Origin: an uncultured bacterium
GTDB lineage: Bacteria; B130-G9
Length of the DNA stretch: 64,000 bases
Direction: 5' to 3'
Assembly: GCA_965372715.1 (NCBI GenBank)
Contig: CBDVDH010000003.1
Span: 34,495 to 98,494, forward strand
Of this stretch, positions 1,177 to 62,774 are shown piece by piece. Position 1 is the stretch's first letter; each line of letters opens with the position of its first letter. The translations under genes and the position numbers were made by a program. The notes beneath the pieces are model-generated. The model was given only the letters and a program-made list of their open reading frames with translations. It was not told the DNA's origin and searched no databases.

Positions 1177-1234
1177 GGACGTCCTCAATCTGTGTTATCT
1201 GCGTAATCTGCGGATGAACAAGGGCTGACCAACA

Positions 1235-2194: not shown

Positions 2195-2575
2195 GTCGGG
2201 AAGTCGGACAAGTTCAAAGTTCAAAGTCTCAAGTTGACGTTGCCCTTCATCGCCATTCGTGCTTATTCGTGTGCATTCGTGATTCCCCTCTTCCGCTAAG
2301 AACTGTCCCAAATTGGACAACTAGGGAAACAGCGTATTGCCATATACAGCGCACAACGTCGGTGAACAGTGGGCTAATGCGCTAGATTCACGGTCGTCCG
2401 GATTCAGGGCCGGCTTAGATTGAGGGCCCGTTCTCCGCCTCATCCGACGTCACAGCCATGACACACTGGTGTGGGGCGGGCTTTCAGCCTGCCAGAGTCC
2501 GGGTTTCCCGCGGCGAGCCCCGCCCGCTTGATGGAAACCACGAATGAACACAAATAACCACGAATCAACGGGGCG

Positions 2576-2728
2576 TGTAGGGGCGGCTCAGGGAGGCTGG
2601 GTCATAAGTCGTTGCGGTTATGTAGGGGCGTGGTCTCAGCCCCGCCCTTTCGAATTGATGGTCGCATAAGATGCCTCGTATCCGCAGGGATTCATGTACG
2701 CGGGCGGGTCTGAGACACCGCCCCTACA
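2576..2728. repeat. Composite GC-rich hairpin repeat (family A: GTAGGGGCG / CGCCCCTAC arms plus GGCTGGGTCATAAGTC motif)
   Basis: Two GTAGGGGCG...CGCCCCTAC-type stem-loops. Related copies at 48362-48535, 53576-53680, 56473-56510 and 58401-58439. A partial inverted copy lies at 2835-2875 (GACTTATGACCCAGCCTCCAGGAGCCGCCC). Confidence 0.65.
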
Positions 2729-3522
2729 GGCCGATTCCGACAATCGCGTCGCGAATGAAAACTGCCGCGTTGATCTTGACAATCGGCCGTATTCCCTGTA
2801 TCGTTGTTGTGTGAATAGACAACGAAATCCTCGTCAATTGACTTATGACCCAGCCTCCAGGAGCCGCCCTCCGCAGAATCATTAGGGATTGTGCACGCAA
2901 GAATAACAGTGTCGTAACCCCGGACTTATTGGACAGCCTCTGGAACCCGGGGGCTAATACAACCGTGACCTGATGCATCGCCACTGCTTGCGCCGGGCGA
3001 TGATTTGCCAACCGCCAACTGGCAACTGCTAACTGCTAACTGGTAACCGCCCGATAGACGGCTTCGACTCGCCGAAGGACAGGCGAACTACGGCGGACTA
3101 TGTGGACAAGAAGGGAAATTGGGGACGACCTATGCCCGCCAGAAAGGTTCAATGCGGTCCCTGACGAATCCTGAAACGGCTGATCGCAAGAGGTCCTTAG
3201 CGCACCGCCTCGTTCCAGTTTGTGCCCGCTGTGAACGCGGCTGTAAACACCTTGTCCAGCAGCGATTCAAGGACACGGGCATGCGGTCGAGGCAAAACGG
3301 CTTCGGAAACTTGATGGCCTTTAGATACGTCGCAAAGTCGCAACGCCTCGATACGCGCTGGAACCAATTCAAGGAAGCGGCGTGACAATTACCCACAATC
3401 TGGACACAGACCCAGGCCAAGGGGCCGGGGGCACTGTTTGACAATTGAGCTTACACAGCCGATAGTTGCTGCTCAAACATCAGCATAGTAATTGGCAAAC
3501 TCTGAAAGGATAGGGGGTCGAG

Positions 3523-5703: not shown

Positions 5704-5872
5704 TTCAGCACCGATTCTCACGAGCGTTATCACCGTCATGATTTGGCCAAGATTCATGTGGGTTTTTGTGGTAGTTCGAGGTTCGAATTGGATGGAGATT
5801 GTCTTGTCATTGAGCCAGGGGACGGCGACTGCCAACCGCCAACTGCCAACTTGCAGCCGCTCGATAAGACGG

Positions 5873-6994: not shown

Positions 6995-7003
6995 TCAATA
7001 GTT

Positions 7004-7156
7004 CCAAGTTTCAAGTTTCAAGTTCAAGGTCGAAGGCCCAAAGTCAGTTGTCAGTTGGCCGTATTCATCCTTCATGCTTCATCCCTCTTCTGTGTCTCTG
7101 TGTCTCTGTGGTTCACTGCAATCCGCAATCGGCAATCCGCAATCGGCAATCCGCAG
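7004..7156. repeat. Cluster of short triple-tandem motifs in the wecA-like/glf-like intergenic region
   Basis: CAAGTTTCAAGTTTCAAGTTCAAGG (7004-7029). CTGTGTCTCTGTGTCTCTGTGG (7090-7111). GCAATCCGCAATCGGCAATCCGCAATCGGCAATCCGCAG (7118-7156). Confidence 0.7.
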
Positions 7157-7158
7157 TT

Positions 7159-8511
7159 TCATGACAGTTTCGTCCAGACTCTTTCTCTCTCATCCAGAAG
7201 GAGCCTGTCAATGGCCTCTTTGCCCTGCATGAAGGAGTGGTCGGTGTTGCCGACCTCGTATCGCCAGCCGCCAAATCTGCCCCGCGAGAGAATATCATGC
7301 GCCTCAAAGAACTCGAGCATCAGCTTTAGGTTCTTGTCTCGGTCCAGCGTCGGGACGGGGTAGGAGCGCTGGACCTTGATGACCTTCGTGCTTACAACCG
7401 CGTCGAAGTCCTCCGGCGAGATAAGTCCCGCTGCGACCAGGCCGTCCAGCGTGCTTTTCACCGCGTCGGCCGCGACCCTATCGACTTCGTTCGGCTGGCA
7501 AGAGACCTCGCAAACGAGCGAGTAATGGCCCGCCTCGGGCACGTTGTTGGGCGAGTAGTTGGAGAAATAGGTAACGCGGTAGAACGGGCAGTTGCTCTCC
7601 GGGAAATACATCCAGCACTTGTCGCTGGGGCACGGCTTTTCAAAGCCCAGGCCGATCATCACGCCAGCCGTAGTTCCAAGCCCGGAGGCCGCGTCACGCA
7701 CATCATCCGGCGCGCCTCGCGTGATTGAGGCCAGTTCGTCGAGCGGGATGCTGCTCAGAAGCGCGTCGTAGGTCGTTCGCTCGCCATTTTCAAACTGGAT
7801 GGTCTTGGCTCTAGGATCGAGGGAAACGATCCGGCGCCTCAGGTGGAGATGGTCCTCGATGTGACGTCGGTAGCCCTCAAACATCGCCCCAGTGCCGCCG
7901 TTGAGCGGGAACCTGAACTTGCTGTTGGGGCCCCAGCCGACGTCGTCCCGCTCGAGGATTACGTTGCTCAGCACCCTCTCAAAATCGATGACGCTGACTC
8001 GGTCGGCAATCCAATCCTTCGAAATCCTTTCGAGCGGGAACTTCCAGACCATGTCGTTATACGGAACCATAAAGTGCTTGGAGATGCCCTTCCCGAAGAC
8101 CGCGTCAATCCACTCTCGAAAGTTGCCAACGGGCCGTTCATTCCTCGACGCCTCCAGCAAGCCGACGAGGCATTCGAGAACCACGTCGCTTCTAAGATAG
8201 CGGATGTTATTCTGAAATGGATACGGGACCCATCTGCCGTGTATCCTCACGAAACTCCGCCGCTCGTGCGCGAGGTAATCGTCGCCCAGAACGCCGTCGA
8301 TATACCTATCGAAGTAGTCGTAGTGCGAAAACAAGACGTGGCCGCCGATGTCCCACACGAAGCCCTTATCATCCGAAAAGGACGCCGCAAGCCCACCGAC
8401 GTAGTCGTTCTGCTCGTATATGTCCCAGTCCTTGTAGCCCAATTCGTTCAGCCGATACGCAGCGCCAATGCCCGTCGGCCCCGCGCCCAGGATTACAATT
8501 CTCTTTTTCAA
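7159..8511 (-). CDS. FAD/NAD(P)-binding flavoenzyme, UDP-galactopyranose mutase (Glf)-like
   Basis: N-terminal Rossmann GxGxxG (ILGAGPTGIGAAY). The region IYEQNDYVGGLAAS...WDIGGHVLFSHYDYFDRYIDG parallels Glf (D.R.HIGGN...GPHIFHT). The C-terminal GGWRYEVGNTDHSF parallels Glf GRLGTYRYLDMD. At 450 aa it is longer than canonical Glf. Confidence 0.6.
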   Translation of the reverse strand: MKKRIVILGAGPTGIGAAYRLNELGYKDWDIYEQNDYVGGLAASFSDDKGFVWDIGGHVLFSHYDYFDRYIDGVLGDDYLAHERRSFVRIHGRWVPYPFQNNIRYLRSDVVLECLVGLLEASRNERPVGNFREWIDAVFGKGISKHFMVPYNDMVWKFPLERISKDWIADRVSVIDFERVLSNVILERDDVGWGPNSKFRFPLNGGTGAMFEGYRRHIEDHLHLRRRIVSLDPRAKTIQFENGERTTYDALLSSIPLDELASITRGAPDDVRDAASGLGTTAGVMIGLGFEKPCPSDKCWMYFPESNCPFYRVTYFSNYSPNNVPEAGHYSLVCEVSCQPNEVDRVAADAVKSTLDGLVAAGLISPEDFDAVVSTKVIKVQRSYPVPTLDRDKNLKLMLEFFEAHDILSRGRFGGWRYEVGNTDHSFMQGKEAIDRLLLDERERVWTKLS

Positions 8512-8714: not shown

Positions 8715-8763
8715 CTAGATTCCTCCGCTCGATGCGAGATGCGAGTCTGTGGCCAGCCACCTT

Positions 8764-12866: not shown

Positions 12867-12875
12867 GGGTTCTCT

Positions 12876-13691
12876 GTGTCTCAGTGTCTCTGTGGTGAGA
12901 GGATAGACGTCGTGAAGGAGAACGAACCGGAGCGGAGTGCGAGGAGGCCGGCTGTTACGTTGATGTATTCGGGCGGGTTGGATTCGACGGTCACGGCACT
13001 GACGCTTGCCGGGCAATACGACAAGGTTCATTTGCTCACTTACGCCCGGGGTTATGGTCACTGGTTCGTGGGCCGGTCAAGGGTGCGCGTCCCGGAGCTC
13101 GAAAAGCACCTCGAAAGGAGCGTTTTCACTCAGTTTAGAGCCAGCGTGAAGGGACTCTTCAAGAAGATCGTCCTCGATAGCTTCGTCGCGGATTTCAGGA
13201 AGTACAAAGCGTTGTTTATTGTCTGCGTGGGCTGCAAGATGGCGATGCACGCCCGTTCGGTGATCTACAACCTCGAACACGGAATCCCATGCGTGTCTGA
13301 TGGGTCCGCCGAGACGACGGCCTGGATGCCGGACCAGATGCCGGTCACGCTGGCCGAATACAAACGGCTTCACGAGGACTACGGGCTGACCTACTCGAAT
13401 CCTGTCTATCACTTCGGCACCCGGGAGAAGGCGCGTGAGACGCTTCGCGCGGCGGGCCTCTCGATGGGGCGCCGCATCGCGGACCGGGACTTCGGGACGC
13501 AGCCTGTCTGCCTCTTCGGCGACGTAATCACGATATTCCGCGAGTTCATGAAGGTCGGCCTCCCGCTGAAGGAGGAGAGCATCGTGGATTTCATGCGTGA
13601 GAAGCGGCCAATCCTCGACGACTACATCAAGGATTACTTTGTCCAGAACGGCCTTGATTTATACGAGCTGAAGGAGCGGGTGGCCCAGTGA
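12876..13691 (+). CDS. PP-loop ATP-pyrophosphatase superfamily protein with conserved CxxC...C; paralog 2
   Basis: LMYSGGLDSTVTALTL, VHLLTYARGYGH, FIVCVGCKMAMH, GTQPVCLFGD. Collinear with paralogs 1 and 3. Confidence 0.65.
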   Translation: MSQCLCGERIDVVKENEPERSARRPAVTLMYSGGLDSTVTALTLAGQYDKVHLLTYARGYGHWFVGRSRVRVPELEKHLERSVFTQFRASVKGLFKKIVLDSFVADFRKYKALFIVCVGCKMAMHARSVIYNLEHGIPCVSDGSAETTAWMPDQMPVTLAEYKRLHEDYGLTYSNPVYHFGTREKARETLRAAGLSMGRRIADRDFGTQPVCLFGDVITIFREFMKVGLPLKEESIVDFMREKRPILDDYIKDYFVQNGLDLYELKERVAQ

Positions 13692-13984
13692 CCGGATGAG
13701 CCTTTAGTGAGGGTGTCTTTTGCCCCTGAACCGGTCGGTTACGAAGGCTGGCTTGCGCCCGATACACGCCAACCCTTGGTGCTCGCCGCCTAACGCAGCC
13801 CAAAGGGGACAGGCGCCCTCACCCCCTCCGAGGCGCGCTATCAGACAGGTTCGGCCCCTTCAGGGCCGATCTTGGGGAGGTGGGGATGCGTTTCGATTCC
13901 GTAGGTTAGCACCTACGACTACCGGTGTGTTCCCCCGTCGGGGAGAGCTTCAGGACGGAAATCGCTGGCCACAAGGATAGATTG

Positions 13985-15454
13985 CTATCCCCCCTTCATC
14001 TGCCCCTTCAATAGCTCAAGGTTCTCCCGGACAAGTCTCGTCTTCGGATGATCGTCGCCCAGGAACTTCCTGAATATTGCAATCGCCCGCTCATAGCACT
14101 CCTTCGCGCCGTTCAGATCGCCAAGGGCCTTAAGCACCAAGCCAAGATTATTCACGCAAGTAGCAACTGTCGGATGGTCCAGGCCATAGGAATCCTCAGC
14201 TATAGAACGACCCCGCTCACAAGACTTCTTAGCGCTATTCAGATTGCCAAGGGCCTGAAGCACTATGCCAAGATTGCTGACCCGAATGGCAACGTTCGGA
14301 TGGCCCGGGCCAAAAGCCTTCTCGTCGATAGCAAGCGCTCGCTCAATACACTTCTTCGCGCCATTCAGATTACCAAGGGCCTGAAGCACTATGCCAAGAT
14401 TGCTGACCCGAATCGCAACGTTCGGATGGTCCGAGCCAAAAGCCTTCTCGTCGATAGCAAGCGCTCGCTCAATAGACTTCTTCGCGCCATTCAGATCGCC
14501 AAGGGCCTGAAGCACTATGCCAAGATTGTTCAGGTGAGTCGCAACTTCAGGATGATCAGGGCCAAAAGCCTTCTCGTCGATAGCAAGCGCTCGCTCATAA
14601 CGCTCCTTCGCGCCGTTGAGATCGCCAAGGTCGCGAAGCACCGAGCCAAGATTGTTCACGTCCCTCGCAACATCGGGGTGGTCCGGGCCATAAGAAGCCT
14701 CGTCTATCTTAAGTGCTCGCTCAAAACGCTCCTTCGCGCCGTTGAGATCGGCAAGGTCTTGAAGCACCATGCCAAGATTGTTCACGTAAGCTGCAACTGT
14801 CGGATGGTCCGGGCCATAGCAAGCCTCGTGTACGGCAAGCGCCCGCTCATAACACTCCTTCGCGCCCTTCAGGTCACCAAGGTTCTGAAGTACCGAGCCG
14901 AGATTGTTCACGTCAGTCCCAACTCGAGCATGATCGGGGCCAAGAGCCTTCTCGTCGATGGCAATCGCTCGCTCAAAAGACTCCTTCGCCCCTTTCAGGT
15001 CACCAAGGTCCTGAAGTACCGTGCCGAGATTGTTCACAATCGTCGCAACCTCGGGATGATCTGGGCTATAGACCGCCTCATAGATCGCAAGCGCCCGCTC
15101 GTAACAGTCCTTGGCCTGTGAGAAGTCAGCGCGGCCTCCCAGATACAGGCCAGCCTGATTGAGCAGGCGCCTGAGAGCATTCGAAGCCAGGCCAATCGCT
15201 TCCGCGTGGCCGGCCGCGGCGAGCGCATGCGCTATCAGCCGGGAGCATTCGGACCAGGTCGTAACGTCATGACTGTCGTCCGGAAAGGCGTCGTTCAGTA
15301 GCTCGACTGCCGCCTCGACCAAATCAGTTTTGTTCTGACCTGACAGCCTGTCTCGCGCGACAGCCTGAAGCAATCGGTGCAGGCTGGCGTGGTTTCCTTC
15401 CCGGTCGATCAACGAGTAGCGCTTCAGGTTCTGGACGGCCTTGTCGAATCGCAT
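13985..15454 (-). CDS. TPR-repeat segment (C-terminal part of an interrupted TIR-NB-ARC-TPR STAND protein)
   Basis: About 10 tandem 42-aa TPR_10/12-like units (NNLG.VLQ.LGDL.GAKE..ERALAIDEKA.GPDHP.VA). It is in the same frame as the upstream NB-ARC ORF. The sequence just after the in-frame TAG (LKRYSLIDREGNHASLHRLLQAVARDRL) is the winged-helix motif normally contiguous with NB-ARC. Confidence 0.8.
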   Translation of the reverse strand: MRFDKAVQNLKRYSLIDREGNHASLHRLLQAVARDRLSGQNKTDLVEAAVELLNDAFPDDSHDVTTWSECSRLIAHALAAAGHAEAIGLASNALRRLLNQAGLYLGGRADFSQAKDCYERALAIYEAVYSPDHPEVATIVNNLGTVLQDLGDLKGAKESFERAIAIDEKALGPDHARVGTDVNNLGSVLQNLGDLKGAKECYERALAVHEACYGPDHPTVAAYVNNLGMVLQDLADLNGAKERFERALKIDEASYGPDHPDVARDVNNLGSVLRDLGDLNGAKERYERALAIDEKAFGPDHPEVATHLNNLGIVLQALGDLNGAKKSIERALAIDEKAFGSDHPNVAIRVSNLGIVLQALGNLNGAKKCIERALAIDEKAFGPGHPNVAIRVSNLGIVLQALGNLNSAKKSCERGRSIAEDSYGLDHPTVATCVNNLGLVLKALGDLNGAKECYERAIAIFRKFLGDDHPKTRLVRENLELLKGQMKGG

Positions 15455-15502: not shown

Positions 15503-16903
15503 CTAGCGGATCACGTCCAGCGGGATTCTGTCCGGCGCGAAGAAGGCGAAGAGATTCATCAATTCTGCCGCAACGGGGCGTTCCTCTTTGAACTTCTCTG
15601 ATGTGATCTCCCAGGTGGTTGCGACGGATTTCTCGTACGGGTCCAAGTTAGAGCATCGCTCCAGAAGCTCCTTCTGCCGCTTTCGAAAGAGATCGAGGTA
15701 GTCTGAGGCGGAGCAACCCGTCTCCTCCAGGTAGGCCGCCGCCTGTTCCAGCGCGAGCGGAAAGTCGCCGAGCTCCCTCGAAAGCTCGCGGAAACCCGCA
15801 TCGTCCTCTCTGCCCGTTCGTTTGCCAATGAACTCGACGGATTTGTCAGGCTCAAACTCCTTCACCTTGATCGGCTGCGCGATGCCCCTGAAGCTCGGAT
15901 TCCGAGAGGTCGCGATCACGTGGCCTTTGCCGCCCTCTGGAATCAAGTCGGCAATGTCGCTTGGCTCACAGACGTTGTCGAAGACGAGAAGCCAACCTCG
16001 CCGCCGCCCGAGCTCCCTTCTCACCGCCTCAATGGCTTCGGGCTGGTTCATGGGATCGATGCCCGGCAGCTTAAGCTCCGCGCCCAGTGAGGCATAGTCG
16101 TCCCGCAGCGTTGGGGCAAGCTCGGACCTCATCCACCAGACGATCTCGTAGTCGGCGCAGTGCCGATACACGTATTCGAGCGCAATCTGCGTCTTCCCGA
16201 TGCCGCCCAGGCCGTGCATCGCCTGTGATATGACGCCGACCTTGCCAGAACTCAATGCACTCTCCAACCTGGCAAGATGCTCCTCGCGGCCCGTGAAGTT
16301 GCGGTTCCTCGAATGCGGCACGTTCCAGACCGGGGGCAATGCACCGGGGAAACGCCGACCTGGAGGCTCTTTAGCCACATCCTCGGCAATGCCCGGAAAT
16401 TCGGGCCTGGTGGTCGCTTCGCTCGGGCCCATGAGATCGGCAAGCAGTTTTGCTCTGGCTTGGTCTTCATTCAGGGCCGCCAGATTGATGTACTTCCTGC
16501 CCGAGAGAATCCCGAGCGGCGTGTCCTTATCAATCAAGACCGGGACAAATCGTGAAGGCTGACCTTCTTCATTTGTGTAGAGAGCGGACGATATCTCGTC
16601 CCAAACAGCACGAGATGCTAACGAACGAGGGGAGAGCAGAACCATGACGCGCTCCGCCTCGAGCGAGGCGTCATACATGTGCTTGTGGATGTTCTCTCCG
16701 GTCCCGAAGTCCCTTTTGTCTCGAATATAAGTGTAATTCACGCCGTCCAACTGCCAGCAGATCCAATCGGCCCACTGCGAATCGCCATGAGAGTAGCTTA
16801 TGAAAAAGTCCTTCATCTCAAATCCAATTGTGGTGCGAACGGGCGTAATAACCGACAAGAGGAAAGAATGAGCTATTCGAGGCCCGAAATCAATGAATAT
16901 CAA
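15503..16903 (-). CDS. TIR domain + NB-ARC (STAND) ATPase segment; the ORF terminates at an in-frame TAG 16 codons before the TPR ORF
   Basis: TIR signature FFISYSHGDSQWADWICWQLD. P-loop GLGGIGKTQIALEY, Walker B LLVFDNV and a GHVIATSRN (RNBS-like) motif. The stop TAG at 15503-15505 is in frame with the 13985..15454 ORF. Confidence 0.75.
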   Translation of the reverse strand: MIFIDFGPRIAHSFLLSVITPVRTTIGFEMKDFFISYSHGDSQWADWICWQLDGVNYTYIRDKRDFGTGENIHKHMYDASLEAERVMVLLSPRSLASRAVWDEISSALYTNEEGQPSRFVPVLIDKDTPLGILSGRKYINLAALNEDQARAKLLADLMGPSEATTRPEFPGIAEDVAKEPPGRRFPGALPPVWNVPHSRNRNFTGREEHLARLESALSSGKVGVISQAMHGLGGIGKTQIALEYVYRHCADYEIVWWMRSELAPTLRDDYASLGAELKLPGIDPMNQPEAIEAVRRELGRRRGWLLVFDNVCEPSDIADLIPEGGKGHVIATSRNPSFRGIAQPIKVKEFEPDKSVEFIGKRTGREDDAGFRELSRELGDFPLALEQAAAYLEETGCSASDYLDLFRKRQKELLERCSNLDPYEKSVATTWEITSEKFKEERPVAAELMNLFAFFAPDRIPLDVIR

Positions 16904-23372: not shown

Positions 23373-23490
23373 CCGAGAGCCTCGGCTCCCGGCGAAGATA
23401 CCCGGCTGGGCCTGCGCTTCACCGCGACCGGCGAGTTCGACATCGTGGCCGATTGATCGGAGGAATGCACACCACAGAGACACAGACGTA

Positions 23491-23573
23491 ATGTAGGGGC
23501 AGGCCCCCGCGCCTGCCCCTACGGCATGCGACCAAACGTGTATCAAGGGCGCAGCAAGCGGCGCCCCTACGGA
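23491..23573. repeat. GTAGGGGC...GCCCCTAC hairpin repeats (family A), two units
   Basis: Perfect palindrome GTAGGGGCAGGCCCCCGCGCCTGCCCCTAC (23493-23522). Then AAGGGCGCAGCAAGCGGCGCCCCTAC (23546-23571), which resembles the AAGGGCGGGGCAAGCACCGCCCCTACA units at 48560 and 48887. Confidence 0.6.
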
Positions 23574-48259: not shown

Positions 48260-48361
48260 GGCTCTCAAACCACAATTCGGTTGAGGGCTTGTCTCCGACC
48301 ATACCGACACCAACATCTTGTGTTGGAAATCGGGCACAGGAAGGCTGTTTAATAATTCGCT

Positions 48362-48535
48362 GTGGGCCGGTAGGGGCGCGGTCTCTGACCCGCCCGCCTA
48401 CATGAATCCCTGCGGATACGAGGCATCTTATCCCGAATAATTCAAGGCCGTGACTCTCGTCGGTGTAGGGCAGGCTTTCCGAGGCTGGGTCATAAGTCGG
48501 TGTCGGGCATCGTAGGGGCACTGCTTGCCGTGCCC
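48362..48535. repeat. Composite GC-rich hairpin repeat (family A), homologous to 2576-2728
   Basis: 48369-48430 is ~90% identical to the reverse complement of 2664-2728. 48462-48535 resembles 2576-2650 (GTAGGGCAGGCTTTCCGAGGCTGGGTCATAAGTCG...). Confidence 0.65.
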
Positions 48536-48559
48536 TTCTCTGATCTGACTGAACCCATC

Positions 48560-48586
48560 AAGGGCGGGGCAAGCACCGCCCCTACA
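48560..48586. repeat. AAGGGCGGGGCAAGCACCGCCCCTACA hairpin unit (family A)
   Basis: Identical 27-mer recurs at 48887-48913. Related unit at 23546-23571. Confidence 0.7.
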
Positions 48587-48886
48587 GACATCACTGCCCG
48601 TTGGGAGCCAAACTCCAGGCGTTTCGATCCAATAGAACACGGCCACATTGATCTTGACAATTGGCAGCATTTCTTGTATCATCTTTGTGCAAGTGAACGA
48701 AAGAACCTCCACGCGCCGACTTATGGGACAGCCTCTTCCAGCCTGCCAAAGACAGAGGCTCGCGCAACAGAGTGTTTCATGTGAGGGATACGGAGATCGC
48801 TGCAAAAGGCAGGCTGGAAAGCCCGCCCCACATCTCATCGCATCCTCAGTTTGTGAATAATACGGGTTATGCGACCATCAATTCGA

Positions 48887-48913
48887 AAGGGCGGGGCAAG
48901 CACCGCCCCTACA
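48887..48913. repeat. AAGGGCGGGGCAAGCACCGCCCCTACA hairpin unit (family A), second identical copy
   Basis: Exact 27-nt repeat of 48560-48586. Confidence 0.7.
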
Positions 48914-51092: not shown

Positions 51093-51113
51093 TTGCTATC
51101 CAAATAGTACGAA

Positions 51114-51211
51114 CCACAGAGACACAGAGACACAGAGAAAGAGTCGCTAGCGCGGTGCCAGTCCGACTTGTCGTCCACTCAGTCAATCTGCGTAATCTGC
51201 GTAATCTGCGG
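51114..51211. repeat. Short triple-tandem motifs between the two ABC exporter genes
   Basis: CCACAGAGACACAGAGACACAGAGAAAGAG (51114-51143) and AATCTGCGTAATCTGCGTAATCTGCGG (51185-51211). The second motif also occurs at 1187-1213. The first also occurs at 7090-7111 (reverse complement), 12869-12894 (reverse complement) and 23470-23488. Confidence 0.7.
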
Positions 51212-51221
51212 ACAGAACCTC

Positions 51222-53575: not shown

Positions 53576-53680
53576 TGTGTAGGGGCGATTCACAAAGCGT
53601 CAGCGCGACGGAATGTCAAGTCGCCCCTTATGTGTTCGATACGATGAGGCTAGGGCGGCTCGTGAGCCGCCCCTACATGC
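53576..53680. repeat. GTAGGGGCG-type hairpin repeats (family A), two units
   Basis: TGTGTAGGGGCGATT...AAGTCGCCCCTTATGTG is an inverted pair. CTAGGGCGGCTCGTGAGCCGCCCCTACATGC follows. Confidence 0.6.
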
Positions 53681-53758: not shown

Positions 53759-55945
53759 TCACCCCTTCTTAATCATCAACTTCCTCGTGGCCGGAGCTGA
53801 CCAGCTACCGTCGTCGTCCTGAACCTCGAACGAGATCGTGTGTCTCCCGACGGAGAGACCGCTGGTAGTGAAGTCCGCAAGGTCGCTGAGAAACCCGTCG
53901 CGGTTGGAAGTCCACTTATAGGCAACGACGTCCCCGTCGCTGTCCGTGCCCGAACCAATGAAGTGAACCTCCTGGCCTTCTGTCGCGGGATTCGGGTCGA
54001 TCAAATCGATTTGAGCGGTCGGCGGCGTGTTCTCGCCCTCACCCGCGATGATCTCCAACGTGTCTGTGGCTGGCTCGGACCAGGCGCCGTCGTCGTCCTG
54101 AACCTCGAACGAGATGGTGTGCGTGCCTACCGTGAGCTCAATGGCCGGCTTAGAGAAATCCTCATCGGTGCTGAGGACCCCCCCCTCGAGGTTGGAAGTC
54201 CACTCATAGGCAACGACGCTCCCGTCGCTGTCCGTGCCTGAACCACTGAAGACAACCGTATGCTCGCCCTGTGTCGCCGGATTTGGCTGAATCGAATCGA
54301 TGTAAGCGGTCGGCGGCGTGTTGTCGCCCTCACCCGCGATGATCTCCAACGTGTCTGTGGCTGGCTCGGACCAGGCGCCGTCGTCGTCCTGAACCTCGAA
54401 CGAGATGGTGTGCGTGCCTACCGTGAGCTCAATGGCCGGCTTAGAGAAACTCGCCTGGGTGCTGAGGACCCCCGCCTCAAGGTTGGAAGTCCACTCATAA
54501 GCAACGATGTCCCCGTCGCTGTCCGTGCCTGAACCACTGAACACAACCGTATGCTCGCCCTGTGTCGCTGGATTCGGTGTTATCGAATCGATAACAGCAG
54601 TCGGCGGCGTGTTCTCGCCCTCGCCCCCCAGGCCCGCAACGTTGAGCAGCGGCTCCGGATTCGCGTCAGGGTCGCCCGTGAAGCCTTTCTCGCCATCTTG
54701 CGGGACGCTGTAGATATCAATCAAAGCCTGGCGAACTGCCGCAACGTCAGCCGCATTTGTGGGCTTGCCATTGACCCAAATGTTGCGATTGACCGAAATG
54801 TACAGGGCCGCGGCGCCCGCAACGTGAGGTGAGGCCATACTCGTCCCGCTTCCAGTCTCGTAGCCGTCTCCTAGATAGGTTGAGTAGATGTCAACGCCCG
54901 GGGCCGCTAGGTCGATTGCGGCGCCGGGAGAATTAACCGGATTGCCTTTGACAACACTTCGGCTGAAGTTGCTGAACGATGCGAACGTGTCATCGGCTCC
55001 GTAACTTGTTGCCTCACCACCACCGCCCGGTTGCCCGTCAGAATCAGCCATAGCCGACACAGCCGCTACTTCAGGGTAAGCCGCAGGAATAATATCGTCT
55101 CTGGTTCCGAACTTGCGATCACGACCATAGACATCTCTCCTGTCATTGCCAGCCGCCACGGCGTAGAAGACACCAGCAGCGACGCTGTTTTGGAGAGCGA
55201 GGCGGAGAGAATCAAGTTTCCCGGTCCCACTCAGGCTCATATTGGCAACGTCGATCTCGTCGGCACGCTCGGTCACCCAGTCTATCCCAGCGATGACCCA
55301 GGAAAAGTCTCCGGAGCCTGTGCTATCGAGCACTTTCACTGACCACAGCCTGGCGCCGGGGGCCACGCCAACCACGCCGATGCCATCGTCAATAGCGGCT
55401 GCGGTCCCTGCAACATGGGAGCCGTGGCCGTTGTCATCGTTGCCGTCCGGATTCTCACCTTTTGTGTTCGTGAAGTTGGCACCGCGATAACAATTGAGGT
55501 CCCGATGTGTGCTGATGCCAGTATCTATGATGGCGATATCCACATCCATGGGATCATCGTAGCCATCAATCTTGGCCGCCGGACTCGAATCAGCGTCAAT
55601 GCGATCGACGCCCGTGGGAGTCTCCTGCTGTATGGCATAGGCAATTCTATCAGGCTCAATGAATCTGACCCGGGGATCGGATTCCACGGCCCACAGCCTC
55701 TGGGCGGGAATGTGTGCGGAGAAACCCTTCAGCGCTACGCGATAGGTGTGGCCCACAATCAACCCATGCCGAGCTGATAGCTCGTGAGCCACATCTGCCG
55801 GATTAGCCACGTCATCATGTAGAACAATGATGAACTGACCGGGAACGATTTCGCTTGACTGTGGCGCGGTTCGGACTGATGAATCAGCCGCAACCACAAA
55901 GGCCAGCGTCAAGACCAGAAACGAGACCATAGCGATCTTCTTCAT
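53759..55945 (-). CDS. Secreted subtilisin-like serine protease (S8) with I9 propeptide and three tandem C-terminal PKD/Ig-like domains
   Basis: Signal peptide. Catalytic D/H/S motifs (AIIDTGI ; HGSHVAGTAAA ; GTSMASPHVAGAAAL). Three ~95-aa near-identical repeats (TPPTA.IDSI.PNPATQGEHTVVFSGSGTDSDG.VVAYEWTSNLE.GVLST...TVGTHTISFEVQDDDGAWSEPATDTLEIIAGEG). These are visible as near-identical ~285-bp DNA tandem repeats around 53990-54700. Confidence 0.85.
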   Translation of the reverse strand: MKKIAMVSFLVLTLAFVVAADSSVRTAPQSSEIVPGQFIIVLHDDVANPADVAHELSARHGLIVGHTYRVALKGFSAHIPAQRLWAVESDPRVRFIEPDRIAYAIQQETPTGVDRIDADSSPAAKIDGYDDPMDVDIAIIDTGISTHRDLNCYRGANFTNTKGENPDGNDDNGHGSHVAGTAAAIDDGIGVVGVAPGARLWSVKVLDSTGSGDFSWVIAGIDWVTERADEIDVANMSLSGTGKLDSLRLALQNSVAAGVFYAVAAGNDRRDVYGRDRKFGTRDDIIPAAYPEVAAVSAMADSDGQPGGGGEATSYGADDTFASFSNFSRSVVKGNPVNSPGAAIDLAAPGVDIYSTYLGDGYETGSGTSMASPHVAGAAALYISVNRNIWVNGKPTNAADVAAVRQALIDIYSVPQDGEKGFTGDPDANPEPLLNVAGLGGEGENTPPTAVIDSITPNPATQGEHTVVFSGSGTDSDGDIVAYEWTSNLEAGVLSTQASFSKPAIELTVGTHTISFEVQDDDGAWSEPATDTLEIIAGEGDNTPPTAYIDSIQPNPATQGEHTVVFSGSGTDSDGSVVAYEWTSNLEGGVLSTDEDFSKPAIELTVGTHTISFEVQDDDGAWSEPATDTLEIIAGEGENTPPTAQIDLIDPNPATEGQEVHFIGSGTDSDGDVVAYKWTSNRDGFLSDLADFTTSGLSVGRHTISFEVQDDDGSWSAPATRKLMIKKG

Positions 55946-56521: not shown

Positions 56522-57937
56522 CTATTCGGTGAACTCCCACTCACACGAGGCGATGTTGCTGGCGAAGTCCATGCTACCCGCGTGGGTCAACGCCGCATGC
56601 CAGCGATATGTGCCAGCCGGTAAGTCTGGCAGCGTCAAGCTGAACGGCTCGTAGTGCAGGTATGTGTCCGCCGGTATGTCAACGTTGGACACGAACGGCG
56701 TCATCGACGTCCCAAACGACGGGTAGAAGAGCAGACTGCCCGATGGGGTCTCAAGAGCGAGGTACAAGTCGATAGCCTGACCGTGGCCCGTCGACCCCAG
56801 GTCGATCAACGCTGCGATCGAATCCCCAGCCGAATAGCGCTGCTCTTTCACCGCGACGGACAGCCAAATATCAGGTGCGCCGTCCCTATGGAGCACGTAG
56901 AAGCCTTCTATAGGTGACAAGGGGCCTGTTGGCCGGGTGGCGACCCAAATGTCGTCGCGCGAATCAATCAGCAGGTCTGCGATCCAGATGAGCGCGGCAT
57001 CGAATGGAAATTTGTAGTATGACCAGTTCTGTCCGTCAAACGTAACGATCGCTCGGAACGGTTTCAAATCTCCAGCGCACACAAGCTCGCCGCTGCTTGA
57101 TATGGAAATAGGTCCATGTGCCAGAACGGGGTATCCCTCAGGTGGCCCGGCGTAAACGAACTCATCGCCCTCTAACCTCTCCACACTATGAATAGGAAGT
57201 GATGGGTAGCCAAACTCCTCGTATTCTCCCATCCATCTAGCTTGCCCGAACCAAATAGTCCCATCAGGGCCTTCGGCGAGAGTTCCCCTTCGCCCCGGAA
57301 ACGTTCTGAGGACTTCTCCCGTATCGTTGATTTCGTAGAGGCAACGGTCGGGCAGGCCCAAACTGAACCAGATATGGCCATCGCTAGAGACGAAGAGATG
57401 CCGAGGGGTCTGCCACATCCAAGGGTCATCTATCCACGGCGGAGCTAAGACTTGCTCCTTTTCTCCTGTTAGAGGATCATACGAGACAATCCCCTCAAAA
57501 ACCGAGCCCACCCAGAGGCGGCCGTCGGGACCACAATCAATGCCGCTCACCGTGTACGCGACTTCGAATCCTTTCTGCCATAGTCCGTCTTGCAGAAAAC
57601 CACAACCCTGGACGTTACAAGAGGACCAAATGGTCCCCCGAGCATCCTCACAGATACCGTATACCCCATATGGGCAGAAACGGACCCCCTCATCCCATGT
57701 AAGCAGCTCGCCGTCTATGTACTGGTTCAGCCCACAGCACGAGTGAGCGCTACAGTCCATCCCCATCCAGATCGACCCGTCTGCACTCTCATACAGACTG
57801 TGCGCGCGAAAGTGAATCAAGCCATCTTCTTCCGTGAAATTCTCCCACTCAAACCCGGCAGACGGATGGCTCAGCAGAAGCAGAGCCATCACGTTGATGA
57901 CCAAAACCAAAACAACAGCATTCCTTACTCTCATCAA
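56522..57937 (-). CDS. Secreted beta-propeller repeat protein (two-component-regulator-propeller-like / Cys-rich)
   Basis: Signal peptide. Recurrent DG.IW(F/M/V)G blades (DGSIWMG, RGTIWSS, DGRLWVGS, DGHIWFS, DGTIWFG). Many Cys residues in the N-terminal half. Confidence 0.55.
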   Translation of the reverse strand: MMRVRNAVVLVLVINVMALLLLSHPSAGFEWENFTEEDGLIHFRAHSLYESADGSIWMGMDCSAHSCCGLNQYIDGELLTWDEGVRFCPYGVYGICEDARGTIWSSCNVQGCGFLQDGLWQKGFEVAYTVSGIDCGPDGRLWVGSVFEGIVSYDPLTGEKEQVLAPPWIDDPWMWQTPRHLFVSSDGHIWFSLGLPDRCLYEINDTGEVLRTFPGRRGTLAEGPDGTIWFGQARWMGEYEEFGYPSLPIHSVERLEGDEFVYAGPPEGYPVLAHGPISISSSGELVCAGDLKPFRAIVTFDGQNWSYYKFPFDAALIWIADLLIDSRDDIWVATRPTGPLSPIEGFYVLHRDGAPDIWLSVAVKEQRYSAGDSIAALIDLGSTGHGQAIDLYLALETPSGSLLFYPSFGTSMTPFVSNVDIPADTYLHYEPFSLTLPDLPAGTYRWHAALTHAGSMDFASNIASCEWEFTE

Positions 57938-58400
57938 AACAACCTCCTTCTATTAATCATAGTTACTCCCTTTCTACTTTCGTAGGTTGTGGCCAAAACT
58001 CAAACATCATACACCGTTTGAAGTGTTTAGGAATAAGAGAAATGGCCTGCCTCTGTGACAACTACGGGTGTTCTGCCGTCTCTTCAGTGCGTGCGCCGAA
58101 CGAATACAGTGCGAGCGCGGGAATTAGGGCCTGCGAGGTCGGACGGTGAGGCGCCTCGCAAACCCGACTCAAATCGTTTTATCGAACGAGCCTATCATGA
58201 GCGCCTCCAAGAGAGTTTCCATCGGCCGGACGGACACTCCAAACGCAATCTGCGCAAAAACTAGGCATTGATAGTACCGGTGTTTTCGGGATTGTCAAGC
58301 TTTTTTTCAGTTGGAAGCCGAAGGTCAACATAGGAGGGTTGATCTTGCATTCCGCGTGGCCTCTTCGTGGTTCTTCGCGTCCTTCGTGGACCGATTCATC

Positions 58401-58439
58401 TGCGGGCGGGCCTGAGACCGCGCCCCTACATGAATTCCC
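58401..58439. repeat. Family A repeat unit TGCGGGCGGGCCTGAGACCGCGCCCCTACATGAATTCCC
   Basis: See the 56473-56510 copy. It lies upstream of the Ser/Thr kinase gene. Confidence 0.65.
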
Positions 58440-58579
58440 TTTTTCCTTTTCTCCCATTGTCCTTTTGTCCCGTTTCCCCAATGGGGGAACTCCTATCCAC
58501 CTACAGCTTGCGAGCACAGAGCAGATACACTATCTTGATATGAGGTCAATTAACAGACGGTAAGGAGTGAGGAACGCCT

Positions 58580-61145: not shown

Positions 61146-61466
61146 TTGAAAGGGTCCGACCTTGTCCAGGAGATTTCGCAGCGAACGTTGCTGCCAGTTG
61201 ATCAGGCCAAGCCGATGGTCGAGGTCTTCTTGACGGCCGTCAAAGAGGCTCTTCAGAACGGGCGCAGGGTCGAGTTCAGAGGATTTGGCTCTTTCGTTGT
61301 CAGGGATTACAAGCCTTGTTCGAGAAGAGACCCTGGAACGGGTGAGACGGTTCTGGTTGGGCCGAGGCAGAAGGCGATTTTCAAGCCGAGCCGGCTCTTG
61401 ATCAATCGCCTCAACAGCGGGAGTTCTTTAAGCGGGGATGACGACAGCAATTCAGAGTCAAGATAG
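61146..61466 (+). CDS. HU/IHF-family nucleoid-associated DNA-binding protein with acidic/Ser-rich C-terminal tail
   Basis: TTG start. The core VEFRGFGSFVVRDYKPCSRRDPGTGETVLVGPRQKAIFKPSRLL matches the HU arm (G.G.F......R.GRNP.TG..I.I.A......FK.G..L). Confidence 0.75.
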   Translation: MKGSDLVQEISQRTLLPVDQAKPMVEVFLTAVKEALQNGRRVEFRGFGSFVVRDYKPCSRRDPGTGETVLVGPRQKAIFKPSRLLINRLNSGSSLSGDDDSNSESR

Positions 61467-61571
61467 TCTAGTAGTTCTACGTAGAGATTTGAGATACTAT
61501 TTGCGTCAGGCCATGAATGTTGGTGTTTGTTTCAGCACAATCCGATTGGTCTGGCTTCTTAGGAGGGTGAT

Positions 61572-62774
61572 ATGAGATTTGTAGCCGCAGCCACGGACTT
61601 TTTGAGGGGGTTGCAGGATATTCAGGGGATTGCAGGCCAGCGGAGTATCAACCCGATGCTTTCCGAGACGCTTCTTGAGACGACAGACAACGGGATTACT
61701 ATTTACGCCACGGACCTGACGGTTTCGGTTCAGGAAGCGGTAAAGGCTGACGTCGCAAGAGGTGGTTCAATCGTCGTGCAGGCCAAAAAGATCTTTGAGA
61801 TAGCAAGACAGCTTCCGGAGGAAAAGGTTACGGTCGAGACGCTCGACGGCAACTGGCTCAAGCTGTCGTCGGGCCACGCCACGTTCAAGATCGTGGGACT
61901 TCCGGCCGAGGAGTTCCCGCCGATGCCGGAGTATGACCCGTCGTGTCTATCTGAGATCAACTTCGCTGCGCTGAAGTCGGCGTTTGCAAAGATCATCTCG
62001 TCGATGTGCGAGAACGACGCCCGAAGGTACCTCAACGGTGGCCTGATGGAGCTTGGCGCGGAGGAAGGCTCAATCTTTGTCTCGACCGATAGCCATCGGC
62101 TGTCGTATAAGGTCTCAGACATAGGTTACAAGCACGAGGGTGAGAAACCCGTCCAGCTGATTATCCCGAGGAAAAGCATTGAAGAGATAATGCGGTTGTT
62201 TTCTGACGATGACGCCGTTCAGATGGGCCTCGACAGGCGCCGGCTCCTGTTCAAGAGCGATAGGCTCACGTTCCTGTCCACACTGATAGACACTGACTAT
62301 CCGGACTACCGCGCGGTGATCCCTAAGTCCTGGAACGTCAAAGCAAAAGTGTCCCGCGAAGGCCTCGACACTGTATTGAAGCGCGTCTCGGTCTGCTCAG
62401 ACCCCAGGACTCATCGGGTCCGCTTCTTCTTCAAAGAAGGGGCCATAACACTCGTCGGCGAGGACGCCGAAATCGGCGAGGCGATTGACGAGATTGAAGC
62501 GGAATATGAGGGCGAGGGCTTGGCCGAGCTCATCCAGAAGCAGAAGCAAGAGCGAGAGGCAAGCCGCGTCCCGGGCGAAGAAGCAGTGATTGAACCAGAA
62601 TACGAGGACCGTCTGGAGGTTGACTACAACGCCATGTTCTTCGAGGAAGCGCTCAAGATCATCGAGACGGACAAGGTTGTCTTTGAGCTCACGGAGCCGA
62701 CATCTGGTTGCGTTTTGAAGCCCGACGAGGATGAGCCGACCCAGCTCTGCATCGTAATGCCAATGGGCCGGTAG
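61572..62774 (+). CDS. dnaN: DNA polymerase III beta sliding clamp DnaN (with ~30-aa acidic insertion in domain III)
   Basis: AGGAGGG SD before ATG. Three-domain clamp pattern. The C-terminal ...LCIVMPMGR matches the canonical ...VVMPMRL ending. The insertion is GLAELIQKQKQEREASRVPGEEAVIEPEYEDR. Confidence 0.85.
   Translation: MRFVAAATDFLRGLQDIQGIAGQRSINPMLSETLLETTDNGITIYATDLTVSVQEAVKADVARGGSIVVQAKKIFEIARQLPEEKVTVETLDGNWLKLSSGHATFKIVGLPAEEFPPMPEYDPSCLSEINFAALKSAFAKIISSMCENDARRYLNGGLMELGAEEGSIFVSTDSHRLSYKVSDIGYKHEGEKPVQLIIPRKSIEEIMRLFSDDDAVQMGLDRRRLLFKSDRLTFLSTLIDTDYPDYRAVIPKSWNVKAKVSREGLDTVLKRVSVCSDPRTHRVRFFFKEGAITLVGEDAEIGEAIDEIEAEYEGEGLAELIQKQKQEREASRVPGEEAVIEPEYEDRLEVDYNAMFFEEALKIIETDKVVFELTEPTSGCVLKPDEDEPTQLCIVMPMGR

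Follow-up and report, generated by a model that had tools for sequence, protein, structure and literature searches.

Reused 7-9-nt words in short intergenic tandem arrays of a candidate Coatesbacteria genome: possible RNA-level modules of operon spacers

Short tandem arrays built from a small vocabulary of words are concentrated between the genes of a 64,000-nt stretch of DNA from an uncultured bacterium (contig CBDVDH010000003.1, assembly GCA_965372715.1; hereafter the window). The words are 7-9 nt long, namely CACAGAG(N), CGCAGATTA, CACGAAT(N), GGATGAA, TTGGCRG, GATTGCS and TTGAAAC, and they form arrays of ~21-27 nt with a modal copy number of ~3 and a range of 2-6. We tentatively propose that they work at the level of RNA, as modules within intercistronic spacers and 3′ untranslated regions (UTRs), and act on mRNA stability, processing or translational coupling. 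The proposal draws on the position of the arrays, their orientation bias relative to genes, constraint on an array-bearing spacer above that on synonymous sites, G·U pairing that favours the sense strand, and the replacement of one array-built hairpin by another at the same site. If it is correct, the spacers would be transcribed as drawn, would fold in the same way in the cell, and would affect expression.

The gene map used throughout was rebuilt from the gene calls accompanying the source contig (soda-lake metagenome, ENA ERZ23499000, ZORZ22-1 scaffold_14), the window being the reverse strand of part of this 159-kb scaffold. By these calls it comprises 55,402 nt of coding and 8,517 nt of intergenic DNA. 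The nearest genomes, judged by SufS, are metagenome-assembled genomes labelled Candidatus Coatesbacteria (83-87% amino-acid identity).

Intergenic arrays and their place between genes

A first-pass annotation of the window had pointed to motifs repeated two or three times in several intergenic regions, and all the tracts that it listed are indeed present, at its coordinates or 1-2 nt away. Using Tandem Repeats Finder and counting periods of 7-10, we found 17 arrays in intergenic DNA, whereas 100 dinucleotide shuffles of the same DNA averaged 0.72 and never exceeded 3. Coding DNA held five, so that the density is 2.0 per kb between genes and 0.09 per kb within them; seven Coatesbacteria loci gave a similar division, with 33 intergenic and 10 coding arrays. 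The window arrays are long simple sequence repeats (SSRs) as Mrazek et al. 2007 use the term (a 1-11-nt unit, longer than composition predicts), and, as in that account, units that are not multiples of three are kept out of coding DNA. Since the overall density per kb is not above that of AT-rich unrelated control loci, the case does not rest on rarity per kb but on two unusual features, the intergenic concentration and the reuse of words. The annotation's remark that such tracts are uncommon in bacteria is partly right: they have been documented in a few lineages (PMC4692102, PMC4679880).

Reuse of the words was far beyond chance. Searched with up to two mismatches, CACAGAGACACAGAG (two CACAGAGA units) has seven matches at four loci, against 0.08 in shuffles. 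Of the other words, AATCTGCGTAATCTGCG (AATCTGCGT) has four matches at two loci against 0.19; and GCCAACTGCCAACTG (the GCCAACT word) has seven at three loci against 0.11, a search that also caught 7045-7059. Copies of a family also have common ends, for example GAAC-CACAGAGACACAGAGACACAGA-GA, and the GCCAACY array carries a fixed ~20-nt tail, CGATA(A)GACGGCT, at both of its loci. Two of the annotated groupings needed revision: the tracts assigned to one CAAGTT family exist, but they are two heptamers, AAGTTCA at 2209 and CAAGTTT at 7004, and the 2209 site does not match the 7004 word even with three mismatches; likewise, the tract at 23470-23488 has only ~2 units. Arrays beyond those listed were found at 2254-2281 (with an inverted partner at 2538-2569), 7043-7059, 7064-7084, 8731-8745 and 58362-58389.

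The flagged spacer, 6995-7158, is unusual. On its coding (minus) strand it consists almost wholly of five different arrays in series: GATTGCS x5 (GCAATCC/GCAATCG x5.4 as written on the plus strand, 7118..7156), beginning 3 nt 3′ of the amine-oxidase stop; CACAGAGA x3 (CCACAGAGACACAGAGACACAGAAG on the sense strand, 7087..7111), a singleton; GGATGAA/GCATGAA x3 (7064..7084), each unit containing an overlapping AUG and UGA; GCCAACTGACAACTGAC (7043..7059), that is, CAACTGA x2, ~2 units of the GCCAACT family; and CTTGAAC/TTGAAAC x4 (7000..7029), ending 5 nt 5′ of the glycosyltransferase-4 ATG.

The arrays had been described as promoter-proximal, a description that did not survive comparison with the gene map: they lie inside operons and at gene 3′ ends, and none overlaps a sigma-70-like promoter. 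Scans for sigma-70 promoters and for terminators of the hairpin-plus-T-run type found none at the arrays, and the overall counts equalled those of shuffles. Instead, arrays begin 3-21 nt 3′ of stop codons (those at 1187, 2209, 5829, 7118, 8731, 12870 and 51185, following moaC, MOSC/MoCF, amine-oxidase, sufS, first ABC, cupin and glycosyltransferase genes) or end 5-22 nt 5′ of start codons (1187, 7000, 8731 and 51114), and the loci of relatives have the same distances to stops and starts. The flanking genes are co-oriented in seven of the nine array-bearing spacers. As a trend, the purine-rich version of a word starts a few bases 3′ of the upstream stop, and the complementary pyrimidine-rich version ends 13-22 nt 5′ of the next start, just 5′ of the ribosome-binding site. 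Intrinsic (Rho-independent) terminators were considered and rejected, there being no consensus at the arrays and the 3′ flanks of the hairpins being TGAA/TTAA-like, not T-rich.

Paired arrays and their fate in relatives

Two complementary arrays lie in the minus-strand spacer between two ABC-transporter genes (51093..51221), which combines a long imperfect hairpin with a 46-codon open reading frame (ORF). Three CGCAGATTA units on the sense strand (51185..51211), 11 nt 3′ of the first ABC stop, form the 5′ arm, and three TCTCTGTG units (51114..51138), 22 nt 5′ of the second ABC ATG, form the 3′ arm. On the coding strand, three CGCAGAU units pair with three UCUGUGU units to give 3 x 7 bp, the helices being separated by small internal loops and each unit containing one G·U pair. 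Since this G·U would be an A·C mismatch on the opposite strand, the pairing favours the sense RNA strand.

We compared this spacer in six orthologues (L178-L183) whose ABC protein is 72-92% identical to that of the window. In L178 (ABC 92%) and L182 (ABC 75%), as in the window, both arrays are kept with three units each, and the CGCAGATTA arm is identical at 27 of 27 positions despite 75% identity of the ABC protein. The spacer is 84-87% identical, compared with 60-67% at 4-fold degenerate sites of the adjacent gene, indicating that it is under constraint. A consensus fold of these three similar sequences has 39 predicted pairs and a base that takes in the upstream stop codon; at seven pairs one side has changed with pairing preserved, including G·U to G-C within the arrays. 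In L180, the spacer contains two CGCAGATTA units, a GTAGGGCGGG element resembling repetitive extragenic palindromes (REPs), and a different array-built hairpin, in which GGATT-type units face ATCCCCA x4, i.e. (GGGGATT)x4 on the antisense strand. The L181 spacer has no arrays. L179 has CTTTGTG x3 and, upstream, a long mosaic of GGCAGTTGGCGGTTGGCAG arrays alternating with a REP-like hairpin. This mosaic (L179 1-330; period ~73-146 nt; hairpin GTAGGGCGGGCTTTCCAGCCTGCC) lies 5′ of the ABC gene, whose protein is 89% identical, and has an architecture like that of bacterial interspersed mosaic elements (BIMEs).

Persistence and turnover were also seen 3′ of sufS, where the window has TTCTCTGTGTCTCAGTGTCTCTGTGG, i.e. 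TCTCTGTG x3 (12870..12895, plus strand), 4 nt after the stop. This array recurs near base-for-base in L002, the two sequences sharing TCTCTGTGTCTCAGTGTCT(C/T)TGTGG with equal copy number. At the same site L003 has a decayed copy together with a new (GAAGGAT)x3.4, which is the window's TTCATCC word, and L004 has neither array.

A search for partners of every array within 400 nt recovered only two true array-array pairs. The second joins CATTCGTG-type and CCACGAAT-type units on the plus strand: CATTCGTGYK x2.8 at 2254..2281 is the 5′ arm of a long-range inverted pair whose partner, CCACGAATGAACACAAATAACCACGAATCAAC at 2538..2569, is followed directly by a GTAGGGGC REP-type hairpin. The two arms enclose a structured segment of 258 nt, and the region 2190-2600 folds with z = -4.0. 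Rfam gave no match in the window at the gathering score and, in E-value mode on 12 loci with complete hairpins, only sub-threshold noise resembling microRNAs.

These results suggest a scheme in which an array tending to purines 3′ of a stop codon and its pyrimidine-rich complement 5′ of the ribosome-binding site would form a long hairpin, made of 7-bp helices with an internal loop of 1-2 nt at each unit and reaching from the stop codon to near the ribosome-binding site. Such hairpins might set the stability or processing of mRNA segments. They might also make translation of the downstream gene depend on termination in the upstream one, since a ribosome terminating there would be positioned over the base of the stem and would melt it. 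On this view single arrays would be half-elements: arms that lack a partner, or unpaired sites where the ribosome or an RNA-binding protein could land.

Several observations weigh against this proposal. For most window arrays, the sense RNA contains no complementary partner within 400 nt, and the five-array spacer 6995-7158 folds no better than shuffles (z = +1.0). L183 keeps CGCAGAYTA x3-4 without the 3′ arm. No pair in the consensus fold changed on both sides among the three similar orthologues, as is to be expected with only three sequences. The purine/pyrimidine trend comes from ~12 arrays per class and has exceptions, and CACAGAGA itself reads sense at 7087 and 23470 and antisense at 12870 and 51114. 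Finally, the same words recur across phyla, which a purely structural role does not explain.

The same words elsewhere and in known repeat systems

Six of the words were run against viral contigs and one against metagenome contigs. The metagenome search, an exact match to CCACAGAGACACWGAGACACAGA in public contigs, returned at least 120 stretches carrying (CACAGAGN)x3; what follows on its copies holds for 88-89 copies among the matches listed. They come from contigs of 33-71% GC with many sample prefixes; two of the contigs also carry Acido-Lenti-1 RNA (Rfam, E-value mode), a hint that those two are acidobacterial. The ends of the module are fixed, with palindromic flanks T[AC][AG]-CCAC...GTGG-T[GT]A. 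A long same-strand ORF ends 0-60 nt upstream of 49 of 89 copies, compared with 12 on the opposite strand, and 56 of 88 copies have an inverted partner 16-246 nt downstream. Only the eighth base of each unit varies in the partner, indicating that the real unit is the heptamer CACAGAG plus one free base. The loop between the arms differs at every locus, and the proteins encoded upstream share no family (all-versus-all BLASTP, no pairs). Other arrays on the same contigs form inverted pairs in 17 of 46 cases.

In viral contigs, we found 16 loci for (CACAGAGA)x3, 12 for CGCAGATTA, 95 for GGATGAA x3 and 48 for TTGGCRG x3, as against 1 and 0 for two control octamers of the same composition. The upstream ORF is again mostly on the same strand (12 versus 1 for (CACAGAGN)x3; 6 versus 1 for CGCAGATTA). 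One CACAGAG inverted pair comes directly 3′ of the gene for a phage major capsid protein, where a hairpin with a stabilising or terminating role would be expected. Words of the vocabulary also occur in series elsewhere, as in L196, where CACAGAG units are followed by GGGGATT units. Three viral contigs (L217, L239 and L252) carry GGATGAA arrays of ~12-18 or more units, so that the copy number is not always near three.

Taken at its widest, this distribution might mean that the cross-phylum vocabulary of 7-9-nt words (CACAGAGN, CGCAGATTA, GGATGAA, TTGGCRG, GGGGATT and their complements), in arrays of ~3 units set right 3′ of stop codons and right 5′ of ribosome-binding sites, pairs into periodically interrupted hairpins and makes up an undescribed, widespread class of post-transcriptional cis-element. 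It would be read by conserved machinery (the ribosome or a sequence-specific RNA-binding protein) and spread between lineages by phages, and the known heptamers of cyanobacteria, Xanthomonas and Beggiatoa would be special cases of it. We regard this broader idea as doubtful.

Cyanobacteria, Xanthomonas and Beggiatoaceae have been known since about 1990 to carry heptamer-type repeats near genes. The closest counterparts of the window arrays are the GGGNATC / GGGGA(C/T)T heptamers found in Xanthomonas and Nostoc no more than 50 bp 3′ of stop codons, where the flanking ORFs are co-oriented; they are transcribed (Rehm et al. 2015, PMC4692102). That study considered phase variation unlikely, and they are without known function (PMC4692102). 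The window arrays follow the same positional rule. They are alike, too, in having units of ~7 nt in non-coding DNA, sometimes inverted pairs, and neighbouring genes without a common function, and a word of this very type, (GGGGATT)x4, occurs on the antisense strand in the relative L180. The Nostoc units themselves resemble the STRR heptamers of cyanobacteria. The window differs in having at least seven word families rather than one, units of 7, 8, 9 and 10 nt, a modal copy number of ~3 rather than four, and a host from another phylum. A G-quadruplex reading does not apply here, since no window word contains GGG.

Next closest are the TAACTGA repeats of marine Beggiatoaceae, cyanobacteria and some Bacteroidetes, which form intergenic arrays of 2-6 copies adjoining start codons (MacGregor 2015, PMC4679880); a translational role at the RNA level has been proposed for them, and they are shared across phyla without a known transfer mechanism (PMC4679880). 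The likeness lies in heptamer arrays and in an identical word in distant phyla. The window holds no exact TAACTGA array; its near-matches are TAACTGC/TAACTGG at 3028-3047 and CAACTGA x2 at 7043-7057 (one mismatch). Unlike TAACTGA, the window arrays are tied to a stop codon no less often than to a start codon, belong to several families, and in many copies form hairpins.

With the REP, BIME and REPIN elements of Proteobacteria the arrays share an extragenic and, in their case, presumably transcribed location at 3′ ends or between cistrons, hairpins formed by inverted pairs, and mosaics with short motifs; roles proposed for REP elements include mRNA stabilisation and effects on translation near the stop codon. 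However, a REP unit is an imperfect palindrome of ~20-40 nt, whereas a single array is a direct repeat and palindromy arises only between two arrays, and REP sequences are species-specific whereas the array words cross phyla. No RAYT (Y1 transposase) was found among the called genes of the window and its flanks. The window does contain a true REP-like family, the octamer GTAGGGGC, which occurs 16 times against 1.1 expected and is mostly intergenic. Its GTAGGGGC...GCCCCTAC hairpins have the palindromy of a REP unit, are frequent and often adjoin arrays (copies at 2577-2727, 23493-23570, 48370-48912, 53579-53676, 58422 and elsewhere). Mycobacterial interspersed repetitive units (MIRUs) are intercistronic operon repeats spanned by short ORFs that overlap the neighbouring genes. 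The ABC-ABC spacer is similarly spanned by a bridging ORF in six orthologues, although MIRU units are 40-100 bp long and belong to one homologous family, whereas the units here are 7-9 nt long and the ORF evidence is only suggestive.

A full-text literature search with the literal motif strings returned no papers. Within the literature searched and Rfam, there was no description of several word families per genome, of 8-9-nt units, of a modal three copies, of a hairpin from stop codon to ribosome-binding site, or of the abundance of (CACAGAGN)x3 in metagenomes and phages. This module, 23-24 nt long, is common among phage sequences and apparently among those of soil and sediment. The window extends the phenomenon to one more candidate phylum, Candidatus Coatesbacteria, and shows several word families in a single genome, anchoring to stop codons and, in some cases, conserved hairpins of an RNA type bridging two cistrons. 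Should the arrays adjust operon stoichiometry or the stability of mRNA, they would amount to a regulatory part that is general and portable; should they prove selfish or mutational, they would usefully mark a mutational process so far unrecognised. Concrete objects for testing this are the ABC-ABC spacer and the (CACAGAGN)x3 hairpin.

Competing explanations and further features of the window

The arrays could be by-products of mutation, arising by slippage at units of ~7 nt and by hairpin-templated repair that copies arms, and tolerated outside coding DNA. The long SSRs of many genomes are dominated by heptamers, for which polymerase slippage has been suggested as the source (Mrazek 2007, summarised in both PMC4679880 and PMC4692102). 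The turnover of arrays, with L003, L004, L180 and L181 differing from the window at orthologous sites, fits such an origin, as do copy numbers of 2-6 and the fact that most arrays are singletons without detectable structure. It does not readily account for conservation above 4-fold degenerate sites, including the invariant 5′ arm at 75% protein identity, for family members with exact common boundaries and flanks, for the orientation bias relative to genes, or for 12-95 viral loci for the window words where control octamers gave 1 and 0. We consider this explanation unlikely. Somewhat less probable in our view are miniature mobile or copied elements, REPIN-, BIME- or foldback-like, that spread within genomes and by phages. 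Discrete copies with identical ends at unrelated loci are what such elements would leave, and the GCCAACY array with its fixed tail at two loci, the association of arrays with GTAGGGGC REP-like hairpins (16 versus 1.1 expected), the array/hairpin mosaic of L179, and identical 23-nt modules both in phage contigs and in contigs of 33-71% GC (among the matches listed) all point the same way. Yet no target-site duplication is visible, the flanks instead extending the palindrome; the arm loops differ at every locus and the upstream proteins are unrelated (again among the matches listed); neither RAYT, Y1 nor any other transposase is among the called genes of the window; and orthologous copies are stable between species.

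It is improbable, though there is some evidence for it, that the arrays are translated, either as short ORFs bridging cistrons by termination-reinitiation in the manner of MIRUs or as micro-proteins. Each of the six orthologous ABC-ABC spacers has an ORF whose start lies at -5 to +2 nt relative to the upstream stop (ATGA or TGATG overlaps) and whose end lies at -3 to +8 nt relative to the downstream start, even in the unrelated sequences of L180, L181 and L183. That of the window has 46 codons, beginning within an ATGA at the upstream stop and running 8 nt into the downstream gene; that of L181 was annotated by the gene caller as a 46-aa gene. CGCAGATTA reads Arg-Arg-Leu in the same frame in the window and L183, the indels separating the 129-nt spacers of the window and L178 sum to a multiple of three over the ORF (read from the alignment), and each GGATGAA unit has its overlapping AUG and UGA. 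Against this, such an ORF has a chance of 0.16-0.30 per spacer and a joint chance of ~0.002 over ~4 independent lineages, the peptides differ between lineages, 7- and 8-nt units are repeated in numbers not divisible by three, and arrays also lie between convergent genes and far from starts (5829, 3007, 23470). A looser relay-chain test is passed by 65-74% of shuffled spacers. The first-pass annotation had named location inside genuine small coding sequences as a refutation: a positionally conserved ORF does span the ABC-ABC spacer, with statistical support that is only suggestive, and we take it as a suggestive hint of translational coupling across the spacer rather than of a conserved protein. 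DNA operator arrays, tandem units of 7-9 bp bound cooperatively by small dimeric repressors, seem more improbable still. The words stand in both orientations relative to transcription in the window, as duplex sites may, and a unit length of 7-9 bp in 2-5 copies is like that of operator arrays as generally known; MetJ binds 8-bp met boxes, and the omega protein binds 7-bp heptads, direct or inverted. But there is no sigma-70-like site at the arrays, which lie inside operons and at 3′ ends, the large samples show a gene-relative orientation bias, the G·U pairs favour sense RNA, and the seven or more word families would call for an equal number of binding proteins, every one of them conserved across phyla. 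Low-complexity sequence in a metagenome assembly invites suspicion of an artefact, and in some pathogens phase variation is driven by SSRs with 1-7-nt units (review: PMC4679880); both possibilities had been raised in the first-pass annotation, and both are effectively excluded. The same arrays occur at orthologous sites in independent assemblies of other samples, made with other pipelines (L178, L182, L180 and L002), copy number is identical in orthologues at 75-92% ABC identity, the spacer is conserved above synonymous sites, and the neighbours are housekeeping genes. The other four alternatives each have a lower probability than RNA-level modules.

Some narrower candidates were rejected. A relay of short ORFs across all co-oriented spacers was dropped, since 30-74% of shuffled spacers satisfy its criterion and the test is uninformative. 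Miniature inverted-repeat transposable elements (MITEs) would be expected to show direct repeats, and the flanks here are inverted (TTCA...TGAA, TAG...CTA), although they may include a palindromic TA/TTAA duplication. The RYYYAAC/GTTRRRY cores of integron attC sites are fitted by only a minority of flanks on inspection of 88 copies among the matches listed. The ideas that three units keep the reading frame, or place stops in three frames, suit GGATGAA, CAACTGA and TTGAAAC but not CACAGAGA, CGCAGATTA or GATTGCS, and with copy numbers of 2-6 neither frame rule is general.

The remaining arrays of the window are as follows. AATCTGYGT x3 (period 9; 1187..1213, plus strand), a singleton, lies 10 nt 3′ of the moaC stop and 22 nt 5′ of the MOSC/MoCF ATG, and AAGTTCA x3-4 (2209..2236, plus) begins ~15 nt 3′ of the MOSC/MoCF stop. 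GCCAACY/GCTAACT x6 with the tail CCGCCCGATAGACGGCT (3007..3075, plus) is a dispersed element of ~60 nt, homologous to 5829..5872 on the minus strand, where TTGGCRG x3.4 (minus-strand reading) has the tail AGCCGTCTTATCGAGCGG and starts directly 3′ of the glycosyltransferase-4 stop, between convergent genes. TCGCATC x2 on the sense strand (8731..8745, minus) is 18 nt 3′ of a stop and 16 nt 5′ of the next start. The ~2 units of CACCACAGAGACACAGACG (23470..23488, plus) lie 98 nt 3′ of an epimerase stop and abut the REP-like hairpin GTAGGGGCAGGCCCCCGCGCCTGCCCCTAC, and TCTTCGTGG x3 (58362..58389, plus) occupies a divergent intergenic region, where it adjoins a REP-like element. That region, 645 nt long (57935-58579) and near dnaN, contains arrays, the REP-like element and pyrimidine-rich repeats.

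As called, the gene that follows sufS is probably too short. The residues ARRPAV, encoded 5′ of its called ATG (12960), are conserved in L003, and its longest ORF starts at a GTG within the TCTCTGTG array in both the window and L002 (window 12876-12960). Downstream of this gene, a noncoding block of ~150 nt (GAGCYTTTAGTGAGGGCG...CCCTCACCCCCTCCGAGGCG) is conserved in three Coatesbacteria genomes (window 13692-13850; L002 6396-6540; L004 1950-2090); it has no Rfam match and is a candidate structured RNA. Two noncoding elements of ~350 nt, ~71% identical and in the same orientation (2480-2960 and 48340-48800), hold a sigma-70-like TTGACA-17-TATCRT and the inverted blocks GGCTGGGTCATAAGTCG / GACTTATGACCCAGCC. 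The element may be a small-RNA gene or a composite repeat; the first copy is within a gene-free stretch of 1.3 kb (2195-3522).

Longer repeats occur in frame within genes. A 126-nt period is repeated x7.6 at 14079-15112 in an ORF without a Pfam match (13985-15454), and a 291-nt period x2.5 at 53894-54626 in an S8 peptidase gene. Beside the former repeat-rich ORF lies a gene for a TIR_2 and NB-ARC (STAND NTPase) protein (15503-16816), which may act in defence or signalling. At 61146-62774, dnaN is preceded by an HU gene, not by dnaA.

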